DNA of 64,000 nucleotides, from contig CAWBBV010000004.1 of the NCBI GenBank assembly GCA_963787125.1, positions 96,001 to 160,000 of the forward strand, read 5' to 3'. Positions 30,092-63,971 of the stretch are shown piece by piece (within the stretch, counting starts at the first letter, position 1; every line of letters begins with the position of its first letter). Position numbers and translations under genes: made by a program. This DNA is from an uncultured delta proteobacterium (GTDB lineage: Bacteria; Desulfobacterota; Desulfuromonadia; Geobacterales; DSM-12255). The notes under the pieces were generated by a model. It had not been told where the DNA came from. It was given only the letters and a program-made list of their open reading frames with translations, and did not search any database.

Positions 30092-30149
30092 CAGCAACGG
30101 CTGAGAGCACACCGGCGGCGGGTTTTTGCCGACCGGTGCTGCGCTTAGT
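30092..30149 (-). other. attC (terminal), interrupted by intron 1; remainder at 32049-32053
   Basis: CAGCAAC...GCACACCGG/CCGGTGCTGC...TAGT|TGGGC. Confidence 0.85.
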
Positions 30150-32048
30150 GTACGCCCGTCATGGGCGTGAACTTATGGGGTGCAAGTCCCCTGTACGGTG
30201 AATCCAACACTGTCGCGAGACAGCGTAAACCAAGTACTAGCCGAAGGCAAGGGCGTCTCCGCGAGGAGGGGGCTGGAGGAAGCCGGAGCGCAAAGCTATG
30301 AGCCGACGAACAGAAACAGCATACAAGGCCATCATCCGGGCAAGTCAGCACAACATGACGAAGTCCCTCGGGTTCAGGAGAAATGGTAAATGCTGCGGTT
30401 GTGTAGCCACAGTTCACGTTCTTATCCGGGGAGATCTGCTCCGCATGCCATTGATTCCTGATGGCGCGGCATCTGGTAACAGCTGCCGTGATGGAGCAGA
30501 AGTCAGCAGAAGCCATAGTAGGCGAAGGACGTTGCCGCAAGCGATCCGGCAACTGGAAACAAGCCCGGGAGAGTCCGGGAAGCCTTACCCCGCCGAAGGG
30601 CCGAACGATAGAAAAGGGGAGGAGCCCCAATGAGCTTTCATGACATATCGAACCCGTCCGGGGGAATGCCCATGGAGCGCGTCATTGACCAGCCAACCCC
30701 GGAGCAGCACCTACTGGAGCGGATATTATCCAGTGTGAACATGGAGCAAGCGTGGAAACGGGTCAAAGCCAATAAGGGCGCACCCGGCGTCGATGGCATC
30801 ACCATCGAACAATTCCCCGACCATACCCGTTCTCACTGGAACACTATTCGCGAATCGCTAATGACAGGCAGTTACCAACCTTTGCCGGTAAAGCGGGTAG
30901 AGATTCCCAAAGCAACGGGTGGAACCCGTCCGCTGGGGATACCCACTGTACTTGACCGGCTGATCCAACAGTCCATTGCCCAAGTGTTGACACCGATCTT
31001 CGATCCGGACTTCTCCGCATCGAGCTTCGGTTTCCGTCCCCGTCGGTCAGCAAAAGATGCTGTCCGAAAGGTGCGGGAGTACATCCAGCAGGGATACCGG
31101 ATTGCCGTGGATATTGACCTTGCCAAGTTCTTCGACACGGTCAACCATGATCTGCTCATGCACCTTGTGAGCAAGAAAGTTCACGACAAGCGGGTACTAG
31201 CCCTGATCGGCAAGTACTTACGGGCAGGTGTAGAGGTAAAAGGGCGTCTTGAAAAGACCAGACTGGGTGTCCCCCAGGGTGGCCCACTCTCGCCGCTTCT
31301 AGCCAACATCCTGCTCGACACACTGGACAAAGAACTTGAGAAACGCGGTCACAAATTCGTCCGCTATGCAGACGACTTCGTCATCCTCGTCAAAAGCCAG
31401 CGCGCCGGCGACCGGGTAATGGAAGGAATGAAAACCTTCCTGACCAGCAAACTCAAGCTCACAGTCAATGAAACCAAGAGTGCGGTAGCAAGAACATCCC
31501 GCATCGACTTCCTTGGTTTTATCTTCAGTGGCACCCGCATCATCTGGTCTGACAAGGCATACAAGGAATTCAGACGCCGCGTCAAACAGTATACCGGAAG
31601 AAGCTGGCGGGTCTCCATGAAGTACCGGATGTACAAACTGGCTCAATATCTCCGTGGCTGGATGGGGTACTTCGGCATCTCGGAGTATTACCGGGAAATC
31701 CCGGAAATAGACGGCTGGATACGGCGCAGGATACGGCTCTGCTACTGGAAGCAGTGGCGCTGGTGTCGTACCAAGATTCGGGAGCTGCTCAAGTTGGGGA
31801 CGGAGAAATTCACCGCCATCCGAGCGGGCCTGAATAGAAGTGGCCCGTGGGCCATGTCCCGAAGACTTGCAGCCCATACCGGTTTGACCAACAAATGTCT
31901 GAAGGATCAAGGTTTATTATCTGTCAAAGAACTGTGGGTGAAGCTTCACTACCCGGCTACGGCCCGGTAATTCTATCGAACCGCCGGATGCGGACCCGCA
32001 TGTCCGGTGGTGTGGGGGCTGGGGGAGAAAAACCCCCGGCTACCCGAT
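30150..32048 (+). mobile_element. Group IIC-attC intron, copy 1
   Basis: Starts GTACG, ends CCCGAT, domain V with a CGC triad, EBS1 ACAA at 30350; inserted at TAGT|T in the attC bottom strand. Confidence 0.92.
30630..31970 (+). CDS. ltrA: Group II intron reverse transcriptase/maturase (no endonuclease domain)
   Basis: NKGAPGVDG, RPLGIP, PQGGPLSP and YADD motifs; 446 aa. Confidence 0.95.
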   Translation: MSFHDISNPSGGMPMERVIDQPTPEQHLLERILSSVNMEQAWKRVKANKGAPGVDGITIEQFPDHTRSHWNTIRESLMTGSYQPLPVKRVEIPKATGGTRPLGIPTVLDRLIQQSIAQVLTPIFDPDFSASSFGFRPRRSAKDAVRKVREYIQQGYRIAVDIDLAKFFDTVNHDLLMHLVSKKVHDKRVLALIGKYLRAGVEVKGRLEKTRLGVPQGGPLSPLLANILLDTLDKELEKRGHKFVRYADDFVILVKSQRAGDRVMEGMKTFLTSKLKLTVNETKSAVARTSRIDFLGFIFSGTRIIWSDKAYKEFRRRVKQYTGRSWRVSMKYRMYKLAQYLRGWMGYFGISEYYREIPEIDGWIRRRIRLCYWKQWRWCRTKIRELLKLGTEKFTAIRAGLNRSGPWAMSRRLAAHTGLTNKCLKDQGLLSVKELWVKLHYPATAR

Positions 32049-37510: not shown

Positions 37511-37566
37511 GTCCAACGGCTCGGGAGATCACCGGGCGGGTTTTTGGCCCGGTGTATCTGCCTTGT
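37511..37566 (-). other. attC interrupted by intron 2; remainder at 39467-39471
   Basis: GTCCAAC...TTGT|TGGAA. Confidence 0.88.
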
Positions 37567-39466
37567 GTACGCCCGTCATGGGCGTGAACTTATGGGGTGC
37601 AAGTCCCCTGTACGGTGAATCCAACACTGTCGCGATGACAGCGTAAACCAAGTACTAGCCGAAGGCAAGGGCGTCTCCGCGAGGAGGGGTCTGGAGGAAG
37701 CCGGAGCGCAAAGCTATGAGCCGACGAACAGAAACAGCATACAAGGCCATCATCCGGGCAAGTCAGCACAACATGACGAAGTCCCTCGGGTTCAGGAGAA
37801 ATGGTAAATGCTGCGGTTGTGTAGCCACAGTTCACGTTCTTATCCGGGGAGATCTGCTCCGCATGCCATTGATTCCTGATGGCGCGGCATCTGGTAACAG
37901 CTGCCGTGATGGAGCAGAAGTCAGCAGAAGCCATAGTAGGCGAAGGACGTTGCCGCAAGCGATCCGGCAACTGGAAACAAGCCCGGGAGAGTCCGGGAAG
38001 CCTTACCCCGCCGAAGGGCCGAACGATAGAAAAGGGGAGGAGCCCCAATGAGCTTTCATGACATATCGAACCCGTCCGGGGGAATGCCCATGGAGCGCGT
38101 CATTGACCAGCCAACCCCGGAGCAGCACCTACTGGAGCGGATATTATCCAGTGTGAACATGGAGCAAGCGTGGAAACGGGTCAAAGCCAATAAGGGCGCA
38201 CCCGGCGTCGATGGCATCACCATCGAACAATTCCCCGACCATACCCGTTCTCACTGGAACACTATTCGCGAATCGCTAATGACAGGCAGTTACCAACCTT
38301 TGCCGGTAAAGCGGGTAGAGATTCCCAAAGCAACGGGTGGAACCCGTCCGCTGGGGATACCCACTGTACTTGACCGGCTGATCCAACAGTCCATTGCCCA
38401 AGTGTTGACACCGATCTTCGATCCGGACTTCTCCGCATCGAGCTTCGGTTTCCGTCCCCGTCGGTCAGCAAAAGATGCTGTCCGAAAGGTGCGGGAGTAC
38501 ATCCAGCAGGGATACCGGATTGCCGTGGATATTGACCTTGCCAAGTTCTTCGACACGGTCAACCATGATCTGCTCATGCACCTTGTGAGCAAGAAAGTTC
38601 ACGACAAGCGGGTACTAGCCCTGATCGGCAAGTACTTACGGGCAGGTGTAGAGGTAAAAGGGCGTCTTGAAAAGACCAGACTGGGTGTCCCCCAGGGTGG
38701 CCCACTCTCGCCGCTTCTAGCCAACATCCTGCTCGACACACTGGACAAAGAACTTGAGAAACGCGGTCACAAATTCGTCCGCTATGCAGACGACTTCGTC
38801 ATCCTCGTCAAAAGCCAGCGCGCCGGCGACCGGGTAATGGAAGGAATGAAAACCTTCCTGACCAGCAAACTCAAGCTCACAGTCAATGAAACCAAGAGTG
38901 CGGTAGCAAGAACATCCCGCATCGACTTCCTTGGTTTTATCTTCAGTGGCACCCGCATCATCTGGTCTGACAAGGCATACAAGGAATTCAGACGCCGCGT
39001 CAAACAGTATACCGGAAGAAGCTGGCGGGTCTCCATGAAGTACCGGATGTACAAACTGGCTCAATATCTCCGTGGCTGGATGGGGTACTTCGGCATCTCG
39101 GAGTATTACCGGGAAATCCCGGAAATAGACGGCTGGATACGGCGCAGGATACGGCTCTGCTACTGGAAGCAGTGGCGCTGGTGTCGTACCAAGATTCGGG
39201 AGCTGCTCAAGTTGGGGACGGAGAAATTCACCGCCATCCGAGCGGGCCTGAATAGAAGTGGCCCGTGGGCCATGTCCCGAAGACTTGCAGCCCATACCGG
39301 TTTGACCAACAAATGTCTGAAGGATCAAGGTTTATTATCTGTCAAAGAACTGTGGGTGAAGCTTCACTACCCGGCTACGGCCCGGTAATTCTATCGAACC
39401 GCCGGATGCGGACCCGCATGTCCGGTGGTGTGGGGGCTGGGGGAGAAAAACCCCCGGCTACCCGAT
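37567..39466 (+). mobile_element. Group IIC-attC intron, copy 2
   Basis: Near-identical to copy 1 with an identical protein; inserted at TTGT|T. Confidence 0.92.
38048..39388 (+). CDS. ltrA: Group II intron reverse transcriptase/maturase
   Basis: Same protein sequence as 30630-31970. Confidence 0.95.
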   Translation: MSFHDISNPSGGMPMERVIDQPTPEQHLLERILSSVNMEQAWKRVKANKGAPGVDGITIEQFPDHTRSHWNTIRESLMTGSYQPLPVKRVEIPKATGGTRPLGIPTVLDRLIQQSIAQVLTPIFDPDFSASSFGFRPRRSAKDAVRKVREYIQQGYRIAVDIDLAKFFDTVNHDLLMHLVSKKVHDKRVLALIGKYLRAGVEVKGRLEKTRLGVPQGGPLSPLLANILLDTLDKELEKRGHKFVRYADDFVILVKSQRAGDRVMEGMKTFLTSKLKLTVNETKSAVARTSRIDFLGFIFSGTRIIWSDKAYKEFRRRVKQYTGRSWRVSMKYRMYKLAQYLRGWMGYFGISEYYREIPEIDGWIRRRIRLCYWKQWRWCRTKIRELLKLGTEKFTAIRAGLNRSGPWAMSRRLAAHTGLTNKCLKDQGLLSVKELWVKLHYPATAR

Positions 39467-39994: not shown

Positions 39995-40051
39995 TTCCAA
40001 CGCCATAAGCCTGACCGGCGGTTTTTGGGCCGGTCTTGGCGCTCGTTGAAC
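39995..40051 (-). other. attC site
   Basis: TTCCAAC...GACCGGC/GCCGGTC...GTTGAAC. Confidence 0.88.
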
Positions 40052-40437: not shown

Positions 40438-42111
40438 CCCGAATCCGCAAATCTCTGCCGGACACATTCAGGCAGCGTGAGTTCGGGGGTATTTTTTCAG
40501 TGAGCTCCCTTTGATGGGAGTCGAAAACACATATTTTCTCTAAAATTCAAAAAGTGACGCGCTATTTGCCTCTTCAGACGATGTTTTTTGCCGGACTGAA
40601 GACGAACTGCCCCCTTGTTCTTGCTTTTTTGTTCTTTGACAATCTCGTTTTCAGCTTTTCTTTAGCAGGTTACCGGCTGAAGCCTGCCGATTCTTGCCTG
40701 AATCCTGTCAGGGCGAAGTTTCTCCAGCCACCAGCCGTTGACTTTCAGCAGGCTCTTGCGGGCATGATTGACCACGATTGCCGCACTACGCAGCAGATAA
40801 TCCTGAATGGTCTTGATCCGCCGCCGTACCGGTGTTAAGTGACTGTCCATCTCTCCGTCACCAGCTTCATCCCGCCACTGCTGACCCAGCAGGATAAGCA
40901 GGTTGTAGGCCATGGTCCCCAAGGTAAGGAATACTTCGTTGACACTGAAGGTCTGGGAGGGGAGTCGCTCCAGATCCAGGTCGTGCTTGAGTTCCTTGTT
41001 CGCTTCTTCTGCAGCTCCACGCCCCCGATAGAGTTCGAATGCCCGCTGCGGGGTGACTTCTTTGGGTAGATTGGTGGCCAGTATGTGGTAGCGGACGTCA
41101 TTGAGCAGCAGTGGCTGTCCTTTCTCGTCTACGGACTTGATCTGAACACAGAAGACGAAACGGCGGGGAGTTTTCCAGCCGCTTGGGGTGTACTCGAATT
41201 CTCCGTAAAACTCGCCGCCGAAGTCAGTGACTTTGAGGCTCATAACATCGACATCGAGATTCTCGTTTACCACTCGATCCAATGCGCCGCTGGCTCGGGC
41301 CTTGACCAGATAGTATGCTTTAGCATCTTCGCTGGCTTGAACAGTTTTGATGCTGTAAAGCCCGGCATCGTAGCGAAACAGGAGCTTGTTCCGATCTATT
41401 TTCTCGGGGAGCAGCTCTGCCGTTTCCCTGATGAATTCGTCAATCCGTTCAACAGCTTTCTCTCTGCCTGGCAACAGCCAGTGATTGATGCAGAACCGTT
41501 CGCGCCCGAGAACTGCAAATACAGGGGTGTAGCAAAGTTTACCGTTGTAAGTGGTTTGAACCCCTTCCCGTTTGGGAGCAAATTGCTCGAAGATACTCGG
41601 GTCAATGTCGCAGGGAATATAGCCTTCAGCCCCCGGTTCAGCTGTGATGCTTGCTTGGGAAACAATCTTTGCGCCGACCCGCTTGAGACCGGTTATTTCC
41701 TCTTTGCCATATTTCTCCAGATGCATGGCAACAGCTCGCTCTTTGGGGAGTTTGCCAAAGCCGAGCGATTTCTTGAGCAGTTTCTCTTCCCGTGCCAGCC
41801 AGGCAAGATCAGTGTAGCTGGTCCGGCGTAAGGAAATGTTTAGTAACAGCGGGATTAGATGTTCCTCTTCCCGGAAGCCGTAGTCGATCTTCTTGACCCG
41901 CACTTCGTTTCTGATGGCTCGAATCAGATCGAGACGGCGTATGAGGGTGGTGAGCAGCTCCAATCCTGCTACGGAAGTTAGCGTCTGTCGGGCTGCTACA
42001 TACTGAAAACCGAGATTGTCTTTCACCATTCGGGTGAGCTCCTTCACTACAATTATGTGAAGGATTATAGCATGTTACACTATATTAACCCAATAGTTTT
42101 GCGGATTGGGG
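40438..42111 (-). mobile_element. IS1380-family insertion sequence
   Basis: 14-bp terminal inverted repeats CCC(G/C)AATCCGCAAA; 5-bp target duplication ATAAT at 40433 and 42112. Confidence 0.88.
40662..42047 (-). CDS. IS1380-family DDE transposase
   Basis: CDIDPS, RYDAGLY and YRGRGAAEEANKELK motifs. Confidence 0.88.
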   Translation of the reverse strand: MKELTRMVKDNLGFQYVAARQTLTSVAGLELLTTLIRRLDLIRAIRNEVRVKKIDYGFREEEHLIPLLLNISLRRTSYTDLAWLAREEKLLKKSLGFGKLPKERAVAMHLEKYGKEEITGLKRVGAKIVSQASITAEPGAEGYIPCDIDPSIFEQFAPKREGVQTTYNGKLCYTPVFAVLGRERFCINHWLLPGREKAVERIDEFIRETAELLPEKIDRNKLLFRYDAGLYSIKTVQASEDAKAYYLVKARASGALDRVVNENLDVDVMSLKVTDFGGEFYGEFEYTPSGWKTPRRFVFCVQIKSVDEKGQPLLLNDVRYHILATNLPKEVTPQRAFELYRGRGAAEEANKELKHDLDLERLPSQTFSVNEVFLTLGTMAYNLLILLGQQWRDEAGDGEMDSHLTPVRRRIKTIQDYLLRSAAIVVNHARKSLLKVNGWWLEKLRPDRIQARIGRLQPVTC

Positions 42112-43743: not shown

Positions 43744-43814
43744 GTTCAACGTGATAAGGCACACCGGCTCTGCGGGGGCTTTTTCCCGCCGTCCGGTGCT
43801 GCCGCAAGTTGGAC
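43744..43814 (-). other. attC site
   Basis: GTTCAAC...GGCACACCGG/CCGGTGCTGCC...GTTGGAC. Confidence 0.88.
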
Positions 43815-45773: not shown

Positions 45774-45827
45774 GTTCAACGTCATAAGCCTGACCGGCCG
45801 GTTTTTAGGGCCGGTCCTGGCGCTTGT
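45774..45827 (-). other. attC interrupted by intron 3; remainder at 47729-47733
   Basis: GTTCAAC...GACCGGCC/GGCCGGTC...TTGT|TGGAC. Confidence 0.88.
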
Positions 45828-47728
45828 GTACGCCCGTCATGGGCGTGAACTTATGGGGTGCAAGTCCCCTGTACGGTGAATCCAACACTGTCGCGAGACA
45901 GCGTAAACCAAGTACTAGCCGAAGGCAAGGGCGTCTCCGCGAGGAGGGGTCTGGAGGAAGCCGGAGCGCAAAGCTATGAGCCGACGAACAGAAACAGCAT
46001 ACAAGGCCATCATCCGGGCAAGTCAGCACAACATGACGAAGTCCCATGGGTTCAGGAGAAATGGTAAATGCTGCGGTTGTGTAGCCACAGTTCACGTTCT
46101 TATCCGGGGAGATCTGTCCGAATTGCCGTTCCAGATACGTGGGGCTGCGCTCTGCATGGCAACATGCCGGGTATCGGACAGAAGTCAGCAGAAGCCATAG
46201 TAGGCGCGAGACGTTGCCGCAAGCGATCCGGCAACTGGAAACAAGCCCGGCAGAGTCCGGGAAGCCTTACCCCGCCGAAGGGCCGAACGAAGAAAGGGGA
46301 GTAGCACCAATGAGCTTTCATGACATAAAGAACCCGTCCGGGGGAATGCCTATGGAGCGCGTCATTGATCAGCCAACCCCTGAGCAGCACCTACTGGAGC
46401 GGATACTCTCCAGTGCGAACATGGAGCAAGCGTGGAAACGGGTCAAAGCCAATAAGGGCGCACCCGGCGTCGATGGCATCACCATCGAACAATTCCCCGA
46501 CCATACCCGTTCTCACTGGAACACTATTCGCGAATCGCTAATGACAGGCAGTTACCAACCTTTGCCGGTAAAGCGGGTAGAGATTCCCAAAGCAACGGGT
46601 GGAACCCGTCCGCTGGGGATACCCACTGTACTTGACCGGCTGATCCAACAGTCCATTGCCCAAGTGTTGACACCGATCTTCGATCCGGACTTCTCCGCAT
46701 CGAGCTTCGGTTTCCGTCCCCGTCGGTCAGCAAAAGATGCTGTCCGAAAGGTGCGGGAGTACATCCAGCAGGGATACCGGATTGCCGTGGATATTGACCT
46801 TGCCAAGTTCTTCGACACGGTCAACCATGATCTGCTCATGCACCTTGTGAGCAAGAAAGTTCACGACAAGCGGGTACTAGCCCTGATCGGCACGTACTTA
46901 CGGGCAGGTGTAAAGGTAAACGGGCGTCTTGAAAAGACCAGACTGGGTGTTCCCCAGGGTGGCCCCCTCTCGCCGCTTCTTGCCAATATCCTGCTCGACA
47001 CACTGGACAAAGAACTTGAGAAACGCGGTCACAAGTTCGTCCGCTATGCAGACGACTTCGTCATCCTCGTCAAAAGCCAGCGCGCCGGCGTCCGGGTAAT
47101 GGAAGGGATGAAAACCTTCCTGACCAGCAAACTCAAGCTTAACGTCAATGAAACCAAGAGTGCGGTAGCAAGAACATCCCGCATCGACTTCCTTGGTTTT
47201 ATCTTCAGTGGCACCCGCATCATCTGGTCTGACAAGGCATACAAGGAATTCAGACGCCGCGTCAAACAGTATACCGGAAGAAGCTGGCGGGTCTCCATGA
47301 AGTACCGGTTGTATAAACTGGCTCAATATCTCCGTGGCTGGATGGGGTACTTCGGAATATCGGAGTATTACCGTGAAATTCCGGAAATAGACGGTTGGAT
47401 AAGGCGCAGGATACGGCTCTGTTACTGGAAACAGTGGCGCTGGTGTCGTACCAAGATCAAGAATCTACTGGCACTTGGTACGCAACTTGGCACCGCCATC
47501 CGAGCGGGCCTGAATAGAAGCGGCCCGTGGGCGATGTCCCGAAGATTGGCTGCTCATACCGGTTTGACCAACAAATGTCTGAAGGATCAAGGCTTATTAT
47601 CTGTCAAAGAACTGTGGGTGAAGCTTCACTACCCGGCTACGGCCCGGTAATTCTATCGAACCGCCGGATGCGGACCCGCATGTCCGGTGGTGTGGGGGCT
47701 GGGGGAGAAAAACCCCCGGCTACCCGAT
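45828..47728 (+). mobile_element. Group IIC-attC intron, copy 3 (mosaic variant)
   Basis: Same ends as copies 1 and 2, with divergent blocks at 46114-46181 and 47458-47500. Confidence 0.92.
46310..47650 (+). CDS. ltrA: Group II intron reverse transcriptase/maturase
   Basis: 446 aa from ATG 46310; YADD motif; a few substitutions versus copies 1 and 2. Confidence 0.95.
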   Translation: MSFHDIKNPSGGMPMERVIDQPTPEQHLLERILSSANMEQAWKRVKANKGAPGVDGITIEQFPDHTRSHWNTIRESLMTGSYQPLPVKRVEIPKATGGTRPLGIPTVLDRLIQQSIAQVLTPIFDPDFSASSFGFRPRRSAKDAVRKVREYIQQGYRIAVDIDLAKFFDTVNHDLLMHLVSKKVHDKRVLALIGTYLRAGVKVNGRLEKTRLGVPQGGPLSPLLANILLDTLDKELEKRGHKFVRYADDFVILVKSQRAGVRVMEGMKTFLTSKLKLNVNETKSAVARTSRIDFLGFIFSGTRIIWSDKAYKEFRRRVKQYTGRSWRVSMKYRLYKLAQYLRGWMGYFGISEYYREIPEIDGWIRRRIRLCYWKQWRWCRTKIKNLLALGTQLGTAIRAGLNRSGPWAMSRRLAAHTGLTNKCLKDQGLLSVKELWVKLHYPATAR

Positions 47729-56976: not shown

Positions 56977-59225
56977 ACCGGGTAGGTCAGGAGCCTTTCG
57001 GCTCCTTTCCCCCCTCAGAACCGTACGTGACAGTTTCCCGTCATACGGCTCAAGCCCTCCAAAGTAATCTCCCTCTCGGGATACCCGGCTATCTGCTTCT
57101 TTCCTCGGTGTTGTTGTCCCTTCACGCCGCTTTTCGGGCGGCGCGACCTGCTCGCCTTCTTTGTTGCTCGGCTCTTCGCGCCTTGAAGTATGCTTCATAC
57201 TCCGGGTCGAAGGGATTGGCGGCACCGCGAATCTTGATGTGTCTCTCGATCTTGGTGCTGGTAGCGTGAATGAGTGTTACCCGGCGTTTTCCTTCCGGGG
57301 TTTTCTCCATCACGGAGAAGTACGTGCTCACGGGGGTGCTGTGCCAGTATGTCTTCGTCAGCCAGCGCTTCCCCTTGTGCGGATGCCTTCTCCTTGCCCA
57401 ATCCCGCAGGTAGCGGTAGATTTGGCTGTCCAGTGCGGCGAAGGTGGCTTTTGCGGCGATGTTCCGGTGATAGTTGCTCCAGCCCCGAATGATCGGATTC
57501 AAGGCGCGGATCATATCACCGGCTTTCATTGCCGAGAATTTCCGGATCGTCTCCCTGATTCTGGTCAGGATGGTTCTGTAGTTGCTCCTGGCCGGTTTCG
57601 TTAGGAACTTCCCGCTGTACTTGCGCGGGTGTTGCCCCAGAAAGTCGAATCCGTCCTCTATCCGCGTTATCCGGGTTTTCTCCGGGGAGAGGGTGAGACC
57701 TCTTTCTTGAAGAAACCTTTCTACCGCTGGTTTGATCGTCTCTTCGAGAAGTTCTTTCGTCTTCCCGGTGATGACGAAGTCGTCGGCGTAGCGGATAACG
57801 TTGACTTTGGTGCGGTAAGGGGTGACGGCTTTTACTGCCGCTTCCAGACCGTCCAGAGTCATGTTGGCCAAGAGCGGGGAGATGATTCCCCCTTGCGGGG
57901 TTCCCGCTTTGGTCGGATAGAGTCTGCCTTCGTCGAAGTACCCTGCGTTCAGCCACTGCCGGAGCATAAGACGATCCATGGGGATATTGCTCATGAGCCA
58001 GTCATGGCCAATCTCGTCGAAACAGGCTTTGATGTCTCCTTCCAGTATCCATTGTGCCGAGTACTTCTTTGCCAGTCCGATGTAGCATTGGTGGATGGCG
58101 TCGGCGCAACTTCGATACGGGCGGAATCCGTATGAATTGGGATCACCCTTAGTCTCGGCCACCGGTAACAGTGCTTGTGCGTAAAGCGCTTGCATAGCCC
58201 TGTCATGCATGGTGGGGATACCCAAAGGGCGCATCTTGCCGTTCTTCTTCGGTATGTAGACCCGCCGTAGTGGCCGGGCTTGATAACCGCGACGTTGCAA
58301 GGTGTGTACAGCTTTCATTCTCTGCTTCGGCGTGTACCAGATTGCTCCGTCCACGCCGGGGGTTTTTCTTCCTCGATTGGAAACAACCCGTTTGACGGCT
58401 AATGCTTTGCCGGCAAACGAGTGGGTCAGAAGCCATTGCAGGGTTTTCACTCTGCCGCGGCGACCTTCCCTGACAGCCTTTGCGATACGGATTTGCAGTC
58501 TTCGGACTTCGCGGCGGGCTTTCTGCCAGTTTATGGCTTTCCAGTCGTTGCCGCTGGCGGAGGGTGCACCAGTCAATCTTGCGATTGCCGCCATTTGCTT
58601 TCCCTCCCAAGGAAGATTCTCCAAACGATCTCGCAATGGAGCACCGGCATTGGACGTCAGCTCCCTTTCGGGCCGAGTGATGTTTCAACCCGTATCCGTC
58701 CCATTACAGGGCGGCATTCGCTTCTTCCGGCCTCTTACTCCCGCACTCCCGACAGTGTGCCTTACGGTTTCACCTGCTCCAGTCTACCGGAGCGGAAATA
58801 CGGGGTTTCCACGTTCCACGTCTCTGACGATGGGTGACTTAGGTCCATTCTGTACACCGGCAGCACTATTGTCCCCGCAGGGGCACCGTTACATCCCCTG
58901 ACCGGCTGCATACCTTTTGGTTCAAGCCTGTCAGCCTCATTTGGCTTGCTCCCCTTGACGGCGCGAGCGAACGTTCACTTGTGTTGACCATATCACCTTT
59001 GAATCCTAGCCCTCACCCGGATCAAGGCTTCCAGGAGGGCGGTCGCCTCACGGTTTCCGCCCCTCCCGCAACAGCGGAATTCGGCTACATTGTTGGAAGG
59101 GCTCCGCACCAGCATGGATGCACCATGGCAGCACGCCTTCCTAGGATACCCGCGGGGGAACACGGGGTCTGGTCAGAATAATCATCATTCAGCCAGACAG
59201 TCATCAACGCGACATCGTGTCGCGA
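56977..59225 (-). mobile_element. Group II intron (CL/IIB-like) inserted in the attC R' core on the top strand
   Basis: 5' end TCGCGACACG; domain V GAGCCGTATGACGGGAAACTGTCACGTACGGTTC; 3' end CCCGGT; removal restores GTTA|GCT. Confidence 0.85.
57122..58636 (-). CDS. ltrA: Group II intron reverse transcriptase/maturase with an RVT_N domain and no HNH domain
   Basis: WKAINW...RLQIRIAKA, KTPGVDG, PQGGIISP, YADD and NPFDP motifs; the start may be 58594. Confidence 0.92.
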   Translation of the reverse strand: MRDRLENLPWEGKQMAAIARLTGAPSASGNDWKAINWQKARREVRRLQIRIAKAVREGRRGRVKTLQWLLTHSFAGKALAVKRVVSNRGRKTPGVDGAIWYTPKQRMKAVHTLQRRGYQARPLRRVYIPKKNGKMRPLGIPTMHDRAMQALYAQALLPVAETKGDPNSYGFRPYRSCADAIHQCYIGLAKKYSAQWILEGDIKACFDEIGHDWLMSNIPMDRLMLRQWLNAGYFDEGRLYPTKAGTPQGGIISPLLANMTLDGLEAAVKAVTPYRTKVNVIRYADDFVITGKTKELLEETIKPAVERFLQERGLTLSPEKTRITRIEDGFDFLGQHPRKYSGKFLTKPARSNYRTILTRIRETIRKFSAMKAGDMIRALNPIIRGWSNYHRNIAAKATFAALDSQIYRYLRDWARRRHPHKGKRWLTKTYWHSTPVSTYFSVMEKTPEGKRRVTLIHATSTKIERHIKIRGAANPFDPEYEAYFKARRAEQQRRRAGRAARKAA

Positions 59226-59286
59226 TAACGGGGCCGAGGCGCACCGGCGGAGCGTAGCGAAGACCAAGTGCCGCCCATTGTTCGGC
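59226..59286 (-). other. attC site whose R' core is split by intron 4 (remainder at 56974-56976)
   Basis: TAAC...GGCGCAC/GTGCCGCC...GTTCGGC. Confidence 0.8.
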
Positions 59287-60897: not shown

Positions 60898-60959
60898 TCC
60901 CAACGGCTTCGCAGTTGACCCGCCGTCTTTTTGGGCGGTGTCCAACGGCGTGGTTATAC
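60898..60959 (-). other. attC site
   Basis: TCCCAAC...GTTGACCCGCC/GGCGGTGTCCAAC...GTTATAC. Confidence 0.88.
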
Positions 60960-60997
60960 CTTCGGGTCACGCCGTTGGAACTGAAGAAGCCTCCATT

Positions 60998-61336
60998 TCA
61001 GGAGGTAATCCAAATTGGGAATTTTTTCAAAAATGAAGTTATGGTGGGATACCCTGCCTGTTTACATAGGTGCTGAACCTCCAGAAATTCTTTCAGCGAT
61101 GTTTCTAAAGAAAACTGTAGAAGAGTTGGGGTATGCAAGACAAGGTTTTCGTAGGTGCTTATTTTGGTTTCGAGTGTTTCTAAAAAGTTGTCCCATTCGG
61201 TTTTGGAATTGGTGTTCATATTGGTTGGCTGCTTTATGGCAAGGAGGGCATAATTCATGGAGTCAATTTTCCTTTTATAATTTATTTTTAAAGATTTTCT
61301 TAATAACTGTGACTGCGGTATTTTCAACTCTGTCAT
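60998..61336 (-). CDS. Hypothetical protein
   Basis: ORF overlapping the upstream stop (ATGA); start uncertain. Confidence 0.4.
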   Translation of the reverse strand: MTELKIPQSQLLRKSLKINYKRKIDSMNYALLAIKQPTNMNTNSKTEWDNFLETLETKISTYENLVLHTPTLLQFSLETSLKEFLEVQHLCKQAGYPTITSFLKKFPIWITS

Positions 61337-61635
61337 TCTACTTTTATGGACTCTTCAATGATTTGAGTCACTTTACCATCACTCAGGTTTATTACTCTTC
61401 GGTTTATAGTTATTTGGTCGGAGCGGCATTGTTTGAATTTGTCATAAAGCCACGCCGCAACAAGGCTTGAAGGTACTCCTGTAGCAACACTAATAACAAT
61501 GGTCACCGCAATATCAGCGGCGCTAAAATCCTTGTTAATGGTGATTGTAGGCAGGTTAAACGAAACACCAGAAGGAATGTTGTTATTTAGAAGAAATGCA
61601 TCCTTGTTATTTGAGAGATTAACTTCAATTTGCAT
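61333..61635 (-). CDS. Small protein with one hydrophobic helix
   Basis: RBS GAAGGAG; IAVTIVISVATGVPSSLVAAWLYD. Confidence 0.55.
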   Translation of the reverse strand: MQIEVNLSNNKDAFLLNNNIPSGVSFNLPTITINKDFSAADIAVTIVISVATGVPSSLVAAWLYDKFKQCRSDQITINRRVINLSDGKVTQIIEESIKVE

Positions 61636-62010
61636 TTTGCTGATCTCCTTCTGTTTTATTGTTGATTCTTTTGGCGAGTACTTCTCCGGTTTCTGTGTCG
61701 TAAAGCCATATCTGCTCAATGCTTGCGCCTAAATAATGAGATGATGTACTCCACCCGTGATTATAAGGGTAGGTAGGCTCACTGTAATTGCTTGTTGATT
61801 TTAAAATGTATGGGTCAACCAATTTTACAATTACAAGAACAGCTAAATCGTCTTTTAGCCTTTTTGCCTTTTGCGGGTCAACTGTGATTGTAAATTTTGG
61901 GTCGTTTATACTGGAACAGTTTGTACCTTGTATTGAAAAACTATCACCCCTAATCATTGTTGCCCTGACAATAGCTCCGAAGCCATTAGTTGCAGTGTAA
62001 GGGGGTCTTA
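61625..62010 (-). pseudogene. 5'-truncated gene fragment
   Basis: The frame stays open upstream of ATG 61957 (YTATNGFGAIV) without a start codon or RBS. Confidence 0.4.
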
Positions 62011-62087
62011 GGTTGTTATTCGCCTTTGTTTTAATTCGCCTTATGTCTTTGACTTTATTAGCCTTTTAGCTGCCGCGAAGCGGTTTA

Positions 62088-62180
62088 GTTCAACGGCTTC
62101 GCGCATGACCTGCGTGGAGGAAGGAGTAACAATGAAAAAGGATAATGTGAAACCGCGACAGGTCGATGCGCTTGTTATGC
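62088..62180 (-). other. attC site (93 bp) with an RBS and ATG in its loop
   Basis: GTTCAAC...GCGCATGACCTG/CAGGTCGATGCGC...GTTATGC. Confidence 0.85.
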
Positions 62181-62425
62181 AAATTGGGCGAATCGAAGTC
62201 GTAAATATTTCCCGTTCAGAGTCAAATTTAGACAAAGCGTGTGACTCCGCATATTGGCTAGCGGTAAACAAATTCGGTATTGACGAATGTGGACACTCGC
62301 AAAAGCTCACAGAATGGGAAAGGTCGTCTTGCTGGGTAGAGTTGGAATTCAGCTCCTACAAGCGGGTAGGTGAACAGCACTATTACACTTTCACGGCAAC
62401 CGCTAAGAAAAATATCGAAGAATAG
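62132..62425 (+). CDS. Inverted cassette gene (97 aa) starting inside its own attC
   Basis: GGAGGAAGGAG RBS then ATG 62132; the ORF ends 4 bp before the next attC. Confidence 0.65.
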   Translation: MKKDNVKPRQVDALVMQIGRIEVVNISRSESNLDKACDSAYWLAVNKFGIDECGHSQKLTEWERSSCWVELEFSSYKRVGEQHYYTFTATAKKNIEE

Positions 62426-62429
62426 GTTT

Positions 62430-62486
62430 GCATAACGCCATAAGCCTGACCGGCGGTTTCTTGGCCGGTCTTGGCGCAAGTTGGAC
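62430..62486 (-). other. attC site
   Basis: GCATAAC...GACCGGC/GCCGGTC...GTTGGAC; same family as 39995 and 45774. Confidence 0.88.
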
Positions 62487-62546
62487 ATGTCCAGTTTCGC
62501 TCTGTTAAGTTACATCACTTACAAGCAGTTCCTCTGAATTCATTTT

Positions 62547-63269
62547 TCATGAAGTTCGCTTTTTAGAGCGTTTTGGCATATCTTCTTTTGCTTTTTCTAT
62601 TTTGGGGAGCCAAACCCGAAATGATTTAGTTTCTGTCGGTGCAGAGAAAGTAATAGTGGTGATTTGGTCTGGTACAACATTCTTGACGTATATGTGCTGT
62701 CCACCGATAGGTTGGTCATTTACACCAAAATAATCAATGCAAACATAATTCATATCATAATTGCCAGAATGCTTCTGCGTTCTTACAAAACTTCTAACAA
62801 CAACTTCAATATGTTGTCCTGCATAGACCGCTTTTGATTCAACACCCAAAATTTTTAAAATACCATTGTTGTCAATACCCCTTTCTTCAACCTTGCGTTG
62901 CCGGGATTCAATTCCCTTTTTTAGTGCTTGTTCAAACTTGGCAGGCTCAATGTAACCGATGATGGCTTCACAGACGGTACGGTCTTTTTCAGTGTGTTCA
63001 GTCGCCTTAACACGCTTTATGTAACCACTGGTAAGAACTTGGATAATGTCGCTGGTCAGGGCGGAATCCGTGACAATAGTAGTGGAGTCCACAAACGCCT
63101 TGTATGATTCCACGGCATTACGTATTGCCAGAGTACGTGTAAGTTGTCGTGCCTCAGTAAGGCTTTCCTTGTCACCATAGGTATAACAATAGTGGCCATT
63201 AATGGTGTCTTCCGAAATTGCAACAGTAGCAAACAAAATTGTTGTCAACAAAAATACCAGTATTTTCAT
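62547..63269 (-). CDS. Secreted hypothetical protein
   Basis: Signal peptide; RBS AAAGGA; 240 aa. Confidence 0.7.
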   Translation of the reverse strand: MKILVFLLTTILFATVAISEDTINGHYCYTYGDKESLTEARQLTRTLAIRNAVESYKAFVDSTTIVTDSALTSDIIQVLTSGYIKRVKATEHTEKDRTVCEAIIGYIEPAKFEQALKKGIESRQRKVEERGIDNNGILKILGVESKAVYAGQHIEVVVRSFVRTQKHSGNYDMNYVCIDYFGVNDQPIGGQHIYVKNVVPDQITTITFSAPTETKSFRVWLPKIEKAKEDMPKRSKKRTS

Positions 63270-63358
63270 GATTCATCCTTTCGATATGGTTTTGCGAGGC
63301 TTAAAAATGTCTGGGGGGCAGACCATTGTTCTGCCTTCAGGTATGACGGAAAGGCAGT

Positions 63359-63898
63359 TCAACACGCAGTGTGGTCACAGCTACGCTCTATCTCTTCCCT
63401 TATATATTCAAAACGGGACACAAGAAATTCCGTCTCCGCCAAGAATGATATTGGAATAAAGGCCTGGATGCCTCCCCAAGGATTGCCATAGCGATCACTG
63501 TGATATCGTCCCATTTGGTCCGTCCGATTCTTGTCCTGCTGTTCCTTTATTATAAGTTCTTCGATTTCATCTTCTTTATGCCCTAGAAACTGTGTAATGA
63601 AGGGCACCTCCAGCTGAAATTGCTCATTTGGGTACGCAGCATTATAGTCTGCAAGCAACCCTCGGATGTAATGATGGGGTGGTGTTTTTTTGCCGCTTCT
63701 TGAGATTGCATATTTCAGGAATAGTTCAATGCCGTGGTGAAGTAAGGACATGACGACGGATGCATGGCTAAATGACGTCGCAAAGGAACCATTAATCATG
63801 TCGTTGCAAAGCCGCTGCGCTCCGTCCAGGTTAGCAACACAAAGAGCGTAATGGAGATCCGCTTCATCAAGGCCAGCAAGCTCAGAATTCGTGATCAT
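63359..63898 (-). CDS. HEPN-like domain protein
   Basis: HHGIELFLK...HYIRGL...RY pattern. Confidence 0.5.
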   Translation of the reverse strand: MITNSELAGLDEADLHYALCVANLDGAQRLCNDMINGSFATSFSHASVVMSLLHHGIELFLKYAISRSGKKTPPHHYIRGLLADYNAAYPNEQFQLEVPFITQFLGHKEDEIEELIIKEQQDKNRTDQMGRYHSDRYGNPWGGIQAFIPISFLAETEFLVSRFEYIREEIERSCDHTAC

Positions 63899-63910
63899 TT
63901 TTTCTCTCTG

Positions 63911-63971
63911 GTTCAACGGGGTGAGCCTTCACCTGCCAGGTTTTAGGGCAGGTGCAAGGCGTCGGTTATGC
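63911..63971 (-). other. attC site
   Basis: GTTCAAC...GCCTTCACCTGCC/GGCAGGTGCAAGGC...GTTATGC. Confidence 0.88.

Follow-up and report, generated by a model that had tools for sequence, protein, structure and literature searches.

An inverted gene of predicted phage origin in a 342-bp integron cassette, with a proposed translation start in its attC loop

We describe an integron cassette whose open reading frame (ORF) runs against the array and opens inside the cassette's own recombination site. The window, i.e. the whole stretch of DNA that was analysed, comprises 64,000 nucleotides from an uncultured delta proteobacterium (contig CAWBBV010000004.1, in the following C4; positions C4:96001-160000 of a 4.2-Mb genome). 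Close to its right end lies a cassette of 342 bp with a gene, P0001, on the + strand, which can be read from an ATG in the terminal loop of the attC site (Table 1). Taking all observations together, we lean towards a cassette of a sedentary chromosomal integron that holds an inverted gene of phage origin, for which we propose a start of translation in the loop. An earlier note, made from the sequence alone, had seen here a distinct cassette architecture. The inverted gene, the attC and the loop signals are real; the arrangement exists in one instance only, and we infer the translation from the loop.

In the usual description, a cassette is a promoterless gene that faces away from the promoter Pc and has its attC behind it, and the known exceptions bring their own promoters. 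In the studied cassette there is no room for a promoter or a leader, the gene is reversed, and the sole available initiation signals lie within the recombination hairpin. It is also a clean case of an integron on the chromosome that stores a phage-type gene. The cassette is real, but so far a single curiosity, and any use in the cell is hypothetical.

Table 1. Positions (in the window) of the cassette, its attC, the gene and the two candidate starts
Feature	Position	Strand	Basis
Cassette, 342 bp, oriented like the array (top strand = minus)	62094..62435	-	R-box pairing, neighbouring attCs
attC of the studied cassette, written as its bottom strand; 93 bp	62088..62180	+	DNA folds and R1 covariance model
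R' GTTCAAC	62088-62094	+	sequence
Spacer GG + CTTC	62095-62100	+	DNA fold
L' GCGCAT/GACCTG	62101-62112	+	DNA fold
Variable terminal part	62113-62158	+	DNA fold
L'' CAGGTC and ATGCGC; unpaired A 62158 and G 62165	62159-62164 and 62166-62171	+	DNA fold
TT, then R'' GTTATGC	62172-62173, then 62174-62180	+	sequence
Shine-Dalgarno-like run GGAGGAAGGAG, 5 nt before ATG 62132	62116..62126	+	sequence, 16S rRNA, RNA fold, shuffles
ORF P0001, 97 aa from the loop ATG; residues 1-15 from attC loop and 3' arm	62132..62425	+	translation, homologs, profile, fold
Met16, ATG inside the R'' core; family start position, would give an 82-aa protein	62177..62179	+	alignments, homolog loci
attC of the preceding attI-proximal cassette	62430..62487	+	R1, 55.7 bits, + strand

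The attC site and the cassette boundaries

Sites of the attC type were located with a covariance model, R1, built from 15 clear attCs of the array; the studied attC was left out of the training. The consensus structure of R1 has 11 pairs, 8 of them with compensatory changes. In the window, R1 has 21 matches from 30097 to 63971, every one of them on the + strand (E<=0.0017) and six of them absent from the training set; the best minus-strand match has an E value of 0.15. The studied attC is matched over its full length and on the + strand only, with 33.7 bits (E 1.4e-6), and over the same stretch no minus-strand match of R1 exceeds 1.3 bits. The alignment places R', spacer, L', L'' and R'', puts an unpaired G at the bulge position of the model and has 47 nt in place of the 19 loop positions of R1. 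The site is indeed the longest attC here, as the earlier note had it: the 20 other matches in the window and 33 other matches in the whole genome measure 53–75 bp. Across the order, the best 150 attC matches are all 53–73 bp long.

Folded as single-stranded DNA, the site reaches -14.2 kcal/mol as integrated, and -18.3 kcal/mol in the circular cassette, where all seven R-box positions pair. The 5' arm has a 4-nt bulge (CTTC), the 3' arm has the unpaired G and A listed in Table 1, and the terminal loop counts 35 nt. Such a placement of bulge and unpaired bases has been described for attC bottom strands (PMC5027507), and the other attCs of the array show it too. The bottom-strand consensus given in the same source is 5'-RYYYAAC-3' for R' and 5'-GTTRRRY-3' for R'', with AAC pairing to GTT (PMC5027507). 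GTTCAAC fits this consensus, GTTATGC deviates from it at one position (T for R), and AAC and GTT pair in the folds. With R boxes of the consensus type, an imperfect hairpin, a same-strand match to R1 and complementarity between R'' and the remnant of R', 62088–62180 is, by sequence and predicted fold, a genuine attC with the same polarity as the array, and its recombination by IntI is predicted.

The ends of the cassette are the crossover points on the + (bottom) strand, between AA and C in GTTCAAC and likewise in GCATAAC. The latter (62430–62436) overlaps the attC of the neighbouring cassette, whose first six bases (GCATAA) belong to the studied cassette and complete its R' box in the circular form. 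That GCATAAC matches the R'' box, as had been noted before, holds exactly: it is the complement of GTTATGC in 7 of 7 positions, and the perfect run extends over 10 bp outward from GTT (GTTATGCAAA / TTTGCATAAC). In the 18 other comparable cassettes, 5–7 of the 7 R-box positions match and the longest run is 8 bp (this comparison leaves out one entry shifted by a base and two sites that are interrupted by introns). The 10-mer GTTATGCAAA or its complement occurs at 62174–62183 and 62427–62436, and once more at the junction of attI and the first cassette (64611–64620 in window-equivalent coordinates, i.e. continued past the window end).

The complementarity of the two R boxes allows two other bracketings. 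Their 7-mers would just as well delimit a normal sense cassette composed of the ORF and the downstream attC 62430–62487, and they are compatible with a normal cassette inserted backwards by top-strand recombination. Both bracketings need one attC with its bottom strand on the minus strand. They are ruled out by the scores of the two sites (33.7 and 55.7 bits), which fall on the + strand and not on the minus strand. As both attCs score on the + strand only, the cassette is 62094–62435, with its attC at the 5' end of the gene. Judged by these matches, the gene does run antisense to the attC of its own cassette and to the array. The earlier suggestion that the cassette came from an array transcribed along the bottom strand is contradicted, as R1 gives the attC the polarity of the array in which it sits.

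The ancestral ORF, i.e. the part shared with the homologs below, is bracketed exactly by the R boxes: its start codon lies in R'' and its stop 4 bp before the remnant of R'. Outside the attC, the cassette thus has no space for a 5' leader. That the cassette ends on the ends of an ORF bears on the unsolved question of how cassettes arise. One may speculate that it was excised from phage DNA at flanking secondary sites that contain GTT, or that it was flipped between its own R boxes; flipping the segment between the 10-bp repeats would yield an ordinary leaderless sense cassette.

The antisense gene and its protein family

The reading of the frame in the earlier note could be confirmed. It crosses the L''/R'' arm as R-Q-V-D-A-L-V-M (62156–62179), with the final Met inside GTTATGC, and ends with TAG at 62423–62425, which is followed by GTTT and then by GCATAAC.

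A word-index homology search matched P0001 to itself only. An exhaustive search with phmmer returned 121 relatives at E<=1e-3, among them 24 at E<=1e-10. Four long hits (P0002, P0017, P0091 and P0111), three of which are HYR_4C repeat proteins, consist of 5–17 short matched stretches each and were excluded as false positives summed over repeats. The remaining 117 short relatives have E values from 5.9e-21 to 1e-3, are mostly 79–98 aa long (about 84 aa) and share the motif FDRACD...FGIDE.GH...W.RS.C. Residues 16–97 of P0001 align with them at 33–55% identity. A profile was made from 102 sequences, the query and 101 of the 121 hits, leaving out the four long hits and 16 others with fusions, long extensions or truncations (P0006 and P0047, discussed below, are among these 16). 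It matches the window at 62177–62422 with an E value of 1.7e-33. All family-conserved residues are kept in P0001 (D34, A36, C37, A40, A44, D51, G54, R64, F73, Y85 and F87). The 102-sequence profile had no match in 400 other genomes sampled from the phylum, and an earlier profile of 42 sequences had none in 238 other genomes of the order.

AlphaFold2, run with the alignment, predicts a beta-alpha-beta-beta domain over residues 21–93 (mean predicted local distance difference test score, pLDDT, 93.5), preceded by 20 residues of coil. Pfam gave only a sub-threshold match of P0001 to DUF4354 (E 0.028), and PHROGs gave none for P0001 or for the homolog at locus L010. Foldseek found nothing at E<=0.001, with best values of 0.16 in the PDB and 0.049 in BFVD. 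A wide structural scan with VIA-align gave best Z scores of 5.7–5.5 (2m2j, 2cz8 and 4b2j, dodecin-like or YdgH-BhsA-like), which lie within the range that common arrangements reach as background in this tool. A language-model atlas pointed to one weak viral cluster (score 0.80), which we take as a lead only. With its homologs and its confidently predicted fold, the + strand ORF qualifies as a real gene and as the sole credible gene of the cassette.

In six relatives (P0011, P0036, P0054, P0024, P0051 and P0117) the domain is fused at its N- or C-terminus to other unannotated domains of 60–110 aa that have no Pfam match. Such fusions might give a handle on the function of the family.

Phage context of the homologs

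DNA around homologs was obtained for a contig from a metagenome-assembled genome (listed in a viral catalogue too), for four further loci on viral contigs, one locus for P0047 and 17 metagenome loci. On these phage-like contigs the homologs belong to rows of small ORFs that point the same way, and 10 of 30 neighbouring ORFs match phage families. Among the neighbours are a RusA resolvase, a polymerase processivity factor (sliding clamp), a Sak4-like annealing protein and thymidylate synthase, and further a queuine-tRNA-ribosyltransferase-like enzyme and a DNA methyltransferase. Wherever DNA could be obtained, the family adjoins genes of replication and nucleotide metabolism. A phage link, which the earlier note had raised as a possibility, is borne out by the viral and phage-like contigs.

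A generic hairpin scan of 19 homolog loci showed no attC beside the gene. R1 gave a best E value of 0.36 on 22 homolog loci (79.7 kb), a model tuned to the attCs of this order, which could miss foreign types. Going by the neighbourhoods of its homologs, the gene is of phage origin and is carried in a chromosomal integron.

Two candidate start codons

Two start codons have to be considered for P0001, the ATG in the loop and Met16. The purine run GGAGGAAGGAG and the ATG at 62132 are present in the loop just as the earlier note had described them. The run spans 11 bases and contains both GGAGG and AGGAG; the ATG is in frame, the frame is open to Met16, and the Shine-Dalgarno sequence and its spacing are near ideal. 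The 16S rRNA of this genome ends in the canonical anti-Shine-Dalgarno sequence. In the + strand RNA, the 31 nt around the loop ATG have a mean unpaired probability of 0.75, against 0.32 around ATG 62177 and 0.18 for the 12 nt before the latter. Upstream of ATG 62177 there is no Shine-Dalgarno sequence at a usable distance, the nearest AGG being 14 nt off. Sequence context and predicted RNA folding favour the loop start. Given that a transcript exists, we would put somewhat better than even confidence in the loop start being the one that is used.

The homologs begin elsewhere. In the alignment of 102 sequences, query position 16 is occupied in 99 rows, and Met, the homologs' own start, is the most frequent residue at positions 11–15. 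Homolog starts were counted at 20 distinct loci (L009, L011, L024 and L029 repeat L008, L010, L012 and L013 and were not counted again). In 17 of them a start codon lies 17–22 codons before the FDRAC motif; the corresponding distance is 17 codons for Met16 and 32 codons for the loop ATG. P0047, the closest relative at the N-terminus, is encoded on a 22.9-kb viral contig and starts with MQIG as P0001 does from Met16; in-frame stop codons come immediately before it. In P0006 (44% identity) the N-terminus is extended by nearly as many residues as in P0001; the extension likewise begins with MK and is aligned from query residue 4. P0006 is encoded on a 2.6-kb metagenome contig and was not found when sought in viral contigs. 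This extension is a possible look-alike of the one in P0001, and we regard it as a lead. Apart from this possibility, the N-terminal 15 residues, which the loop and the 3' arm encode, are, as the alignment has it, an extension special to this copy, and the family start coincides with the ATG inside the R'' core GTTATGC. Public records hold P0001 as a protein of 97 aa, which reflects only the choice of a gene caller.

The prediction that homologs would begin with peptides derived from an attC arm has therefore failed, since they start at the position of Met16. Nor can the ribosome-binding site of the loop be called conserved, as none of the 22 homolog loci has an attC. The note itself had named outcomes that would speak against it: a lack of homologs or of translation, or a real start at the Met in the R'' core with a loop ribosome-binding site that is not conserved. 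This counter-case is half borne out, in that homologs do exist but begin at the position of Met16.

Several observations count against a start in the loop or against the model of the cassette as a whole. Only 3–14 of the 102 rows have a residue at query positions 1–10, and in 14 of the 20 loci the motif is preceded by an in-frame stop at a distance of less than 32 codons, which bars an N-terminus as long as that of P0001. The loop signal may also be less exceptional than it looks. In 20,000 shuffles of the 45-nt loop, a 5-mer Shine-Dalgarno sequence with an in-frame ATG open to Met16 arose in 1.0%, and any 4-mer Shine-Dalgarno sequence with any start codon in 7.8%. The former frequency speaks for the loop start, yet it is not very small; the latter is larger under looser rules, and the shuffles kept the purine-rich composition. 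A 35-nt unpaired loop may lower recombination. A scan of the + strand, for promoters of the sigma-70 type only, gave no site in the 580 bp upstream, the nearest being a weak one at 61500–61529. Finally, we know of one instance only: none of the related genomes searched yielded this cassette or gene, so that nothing shows selection on the loop signals. The attC as a translation start is plausible, unproven and a single case.

Expression and alternative explanations

Pc points in the direction opposite to the gene, and only 38 bp of the cassette precede the loop ATG, all of them attC arm and loop. The count of promoter-like sites is no higher than expected from shuffled sequence. For 60900–63400 no public sequencing run was listed, and no holder of RNA reads either. 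With Pc opposed and no room for an internal promoter, any expression must rely on antisense transcription coming in from outside, and the gene would be context-dependent or mostly silent. A hairpin, CCGC-GAA-GCGG followed by TTTAGTT, stands directly before the attC (62066–62089, + strand); the terminator scan did not report it, its stem being too short. Should it act as a weak terminator, antisense transcripts would be less able to run on into the gene.

From this we would sketch the following sequence of events. The variable terminal part of the attC, free to vary under recombination, would have grown to about 47 nt, and the enlarged loop would have come to supply a strong Shine-Dalgarno sequence and a new in-frame ATG. 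In a transcript of bottom-strand sense, the attC arms would fold into a stem that displays the initiation region in the loop and hides the sequence before Met16. Ribosomes would then initiate in the loop, so that the protein gains 15 residues encoded by the attC, and expression would depend on antisense transcription entering from the next cassette. In its full form, the proposal is that the terminal loop serves as a complete initiation region with the stem as display platform, so that a promoterless antisense cassette, cut from phage DNA or flipped between R boxes, makes protein whenever antisense transcription crosses it. We offer this only tentatively and would sooner expect parts of it to fail than the whole to hold. 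If the loop signals do work, the strand recombined by IntI can hold coding and regulatory information in an attC loop, proteins can result from antisense transcripts of arrays, and annotators should seek genes that start inside attCs.

The same cassette and gene could also be explained with translation, if there is any, starting at Met16 and with loop signals that are a chance product of a purine-rich loop. The homologs argue for this start, by their alignment, by the 17 of 20 loci with a start 17–22 codons before the motif and by the MQIG beginning of P0047 with its in-frame stops, and so does the recovery of the loop signal in 1–8% of shuffles. The lack of a usable Shine-Dalgarno sequence before ATG 62177, the pairing of its upstream 12 nt in the attC stem and the near-ideal signals of the loop ATG argue against it; on balance we find it unlikely, although it deserves to be taken seriously. 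The gene might instead be silent cargo, caught backwards or flipped between the 10-bp R-box repeats and unexpressed, in which case the open frame through the attC would have no function. This would agree with the absence of a convincingly predicted promoter, with Pc transcription antisense to the gene and with the singleton nature of the cassette. A flip between GTTATGCAAA and TTTGCATAAC would moreover restore a sense cassette of the ordinary kind, with its start in the core site and its stop 4 bp before R''. However, the ORF is intact with all family-conserved residues present, its frame is open through the attC behind a strong Shine-Dalgarno sequence, and in-silico promoter prediction in cassettes is described as unreliable while antisense promoters in cassettes are documented (PMC11014356). 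We consider silent cargo to be distinctly improbable.

Two further explanations are far less probable. The first reads the cassette as a normal sense cassette inserted backwards by rare top-strand recombination, so that the hairpin 62088–62180 would be the top strand of an attC. Such recombination exists, is roughly a thousand-fold rarer and gives inverted cassettes (PMC5027507, PMC13108822), and the + strand layout (attC, GTTRRRY, gene, RYYYAA) is what such an event would leave. But the bottom-strand model matches the + strand (33.7 bits) and not the minus strand (at most 1.3 bits), and the spacer bulge on the 5' arm and the unpaired bases on the 3' arm near GTTRRRY are bottom-strand-like (PMC5027507). 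We rejected a top-strand inversion on the attC polarity given by R1, and see very little chance for it. The other holds that the + strand ORF is no gene, and that the real product is the minus-strand ORF 62310–62041 or that the cassette is gene-less. A minus-strand ORF of 89 codons does exist, and gene-less cassettes are described as common (PMC11014356). That ORF, however, crosses the attC and the cassette end, and the + strand ORF is backed by 121 relatives and a confidently predicted fold; the minus-strand gene was rejected for the homologs and the profile match of the + strand ORF, and we would give this explanation the least credence of all. A role of the purine run as an anti-Shine-Dalgarno mimic for the Pc-sense RNA was considered only, without evidence. 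The studied cassette stays, in our reading, one of a chromosomal integron with an inverted gene and a proposed start in the loop.

The array and its surroundings

The integrase gene intI is located 1.7 kb past the end of the window, at C4:161732-162667 on the + strand (window-equivalent 65732–66667), opposite to the cassette genes, from which it diverges. It scores 340.9 bits against TIGR02249, above the curated cut-off of 265, and makes the integron a complete one. The open frame is longer (65319–66667 in window-equivalent coordinates, C4:161319-162667, 467 aa), and the 315-position family model covers its C-terminal two thirds only. The roughly 140 additional N-terminal residues have a parallel in a second intI on contig C23, with a frame of 470 aa. 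The attI crossover fits the junction GCATAAC at 64614–64620 (window-equivalent). The studied cassette is the third unit from attI, about 2.2 kb away.

The claim that this is the only cassette gene antisense to the array stands as tested, i.e. by ORF length in the 17 other inter-attC intervals and not by homology cassette by cassette. The longest ORF is on the minus strand in 14 of these. In two more it lies on the + strand and encodes a group II intron reverse transcriptase. The first cassette has a minus-strand ORF with a ribosome-binding site that looks good by eye, and a longer + strand ORF overlaps it. The attC of this first cassette likewise ends in GTTATGC.

The attC 62430–62487, on the attI side of the studied cassette, is near-identical to that at 39995–40051. 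The unit to which it belongs (62436–63916) contains two minus-strand ORFs of 240 and 185 aa with no R1 attC match between them; the 185-aa ORF has a weak HEPN match (E 0.038). Either the unit is one cassette with two genes, or a degenerate site lies near GTTCAAC 63347. The next downstream cassette, 60904–62093, has three small, partly overlapping minus-strand ORFs (110, 128 and 112 aa) without a family match, and its attC has the spacer AACGGCTTCGC in common with the studied attC.

We also found four group II introns inside the array, at 30255–32048 (+), 37673–39466 (+), 45933–47728 (+) and 59167–56977 (-). The three on the + strand are near-identical, are oriented against the cassette genes and start about 100 bp past the attC matches 30097–30149, 37511–37570 and 45774–45831; the fourth adjoins the match 59223–59286. 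Two of the intron-associated matches end in TGTGTAC and not in GTTRRRY, as if split by the intron. We take these introns to resemble group IIC-attC introns. A DDE transposase gene (40662–42047, minus strand; DDE_Tnp_1_4, E 2.3e-29) is placed between the attCs 39995–40051 and 43744–43814.

Outside the main array, R1 found 13 attC matches (E<=1e-3), singly or in small groups, on contigs C1, C5, C6, C12, C14, C16, C18 and C23. Near the second intI there is only one (C23:105072-105130); a hairpin scan upstream of this gene showed no array, and the one attC there came from R1. Another match is on C4, the contig of the array, some 32 kb past intI (C4:194649-194718). Attachment sites of the R1 family were present in 136 of 151 sampled genomes of the order, and the antisense gene was found in none of these. 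Going by this distribution, the attC type is a lineage trait.

Comparison with known systems

Among known elements, the toxin-antitoxin cassettes of Vibrio chromosomal integrons come to mind, which have their own promoter and can face either way in the array (PMC13108822). Like them, the studied gene is independent of Pc and points against the array. Unlike them, it is no toxin-antitoxin pair by Pfam or PHROGs, neither of which gave a match. Furthermore, toxin-antitoxin cassettes have a promoter and a leader between attC and gene, whereas here we find 38 bp that are all attC and no promoter. An own internal promoter, by which promoter-bearing inverted cassettes are recognized, was not found in the scan for sites of the sigma-70 type.

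Gene-less cassettes with antisense promoters have been reported from Vibrionaceae superintegrons and from oral Treponema (PMC11014356, PMC8876359). They show that transcription against the array takes place inside arrays, as the studied gene would need. They provide promoters, however, and not genes, and none was found next to the studied cassette.

With the unnamed FDRACD family of phages, P0001 shares the aligned residues 16–97 and the conserved residues within them. The phage relatives are about 84 aa long and have no attC, whereas P0001 is encoded in an integron cassette with 15 extra N-terminal codons.

Recombination sites with a Shine-Dalgarno sequence and a start codon are known as well. 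ORF-11, ORF-17 and ORF-18 of attI1 in class 1 integrons and short ORFs in attCs affect the translation of cassettes, and the short attC ORFs let ribosomes pass the hairpin (PMC8876359). These ORFs are on the Pc-sense strand, encode functionless short peptides and aid the next cassette via translational coupling (PMC8876359). In the studied cassette, by contrast, the signals are of bottom-strand sense, are placed in the terminal loop and would serve the cassette itself, as the start of its antisense protein. Searches of the literature available as full text, subscription-only papers being outside this coverage, turned up no account of an initiation region on the bottom-strand sense of an attC. 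Rather than a new system, the studied cassette is a combination of two known themes, an inverted gene that is independent of Pc and start signals within a recombination site.

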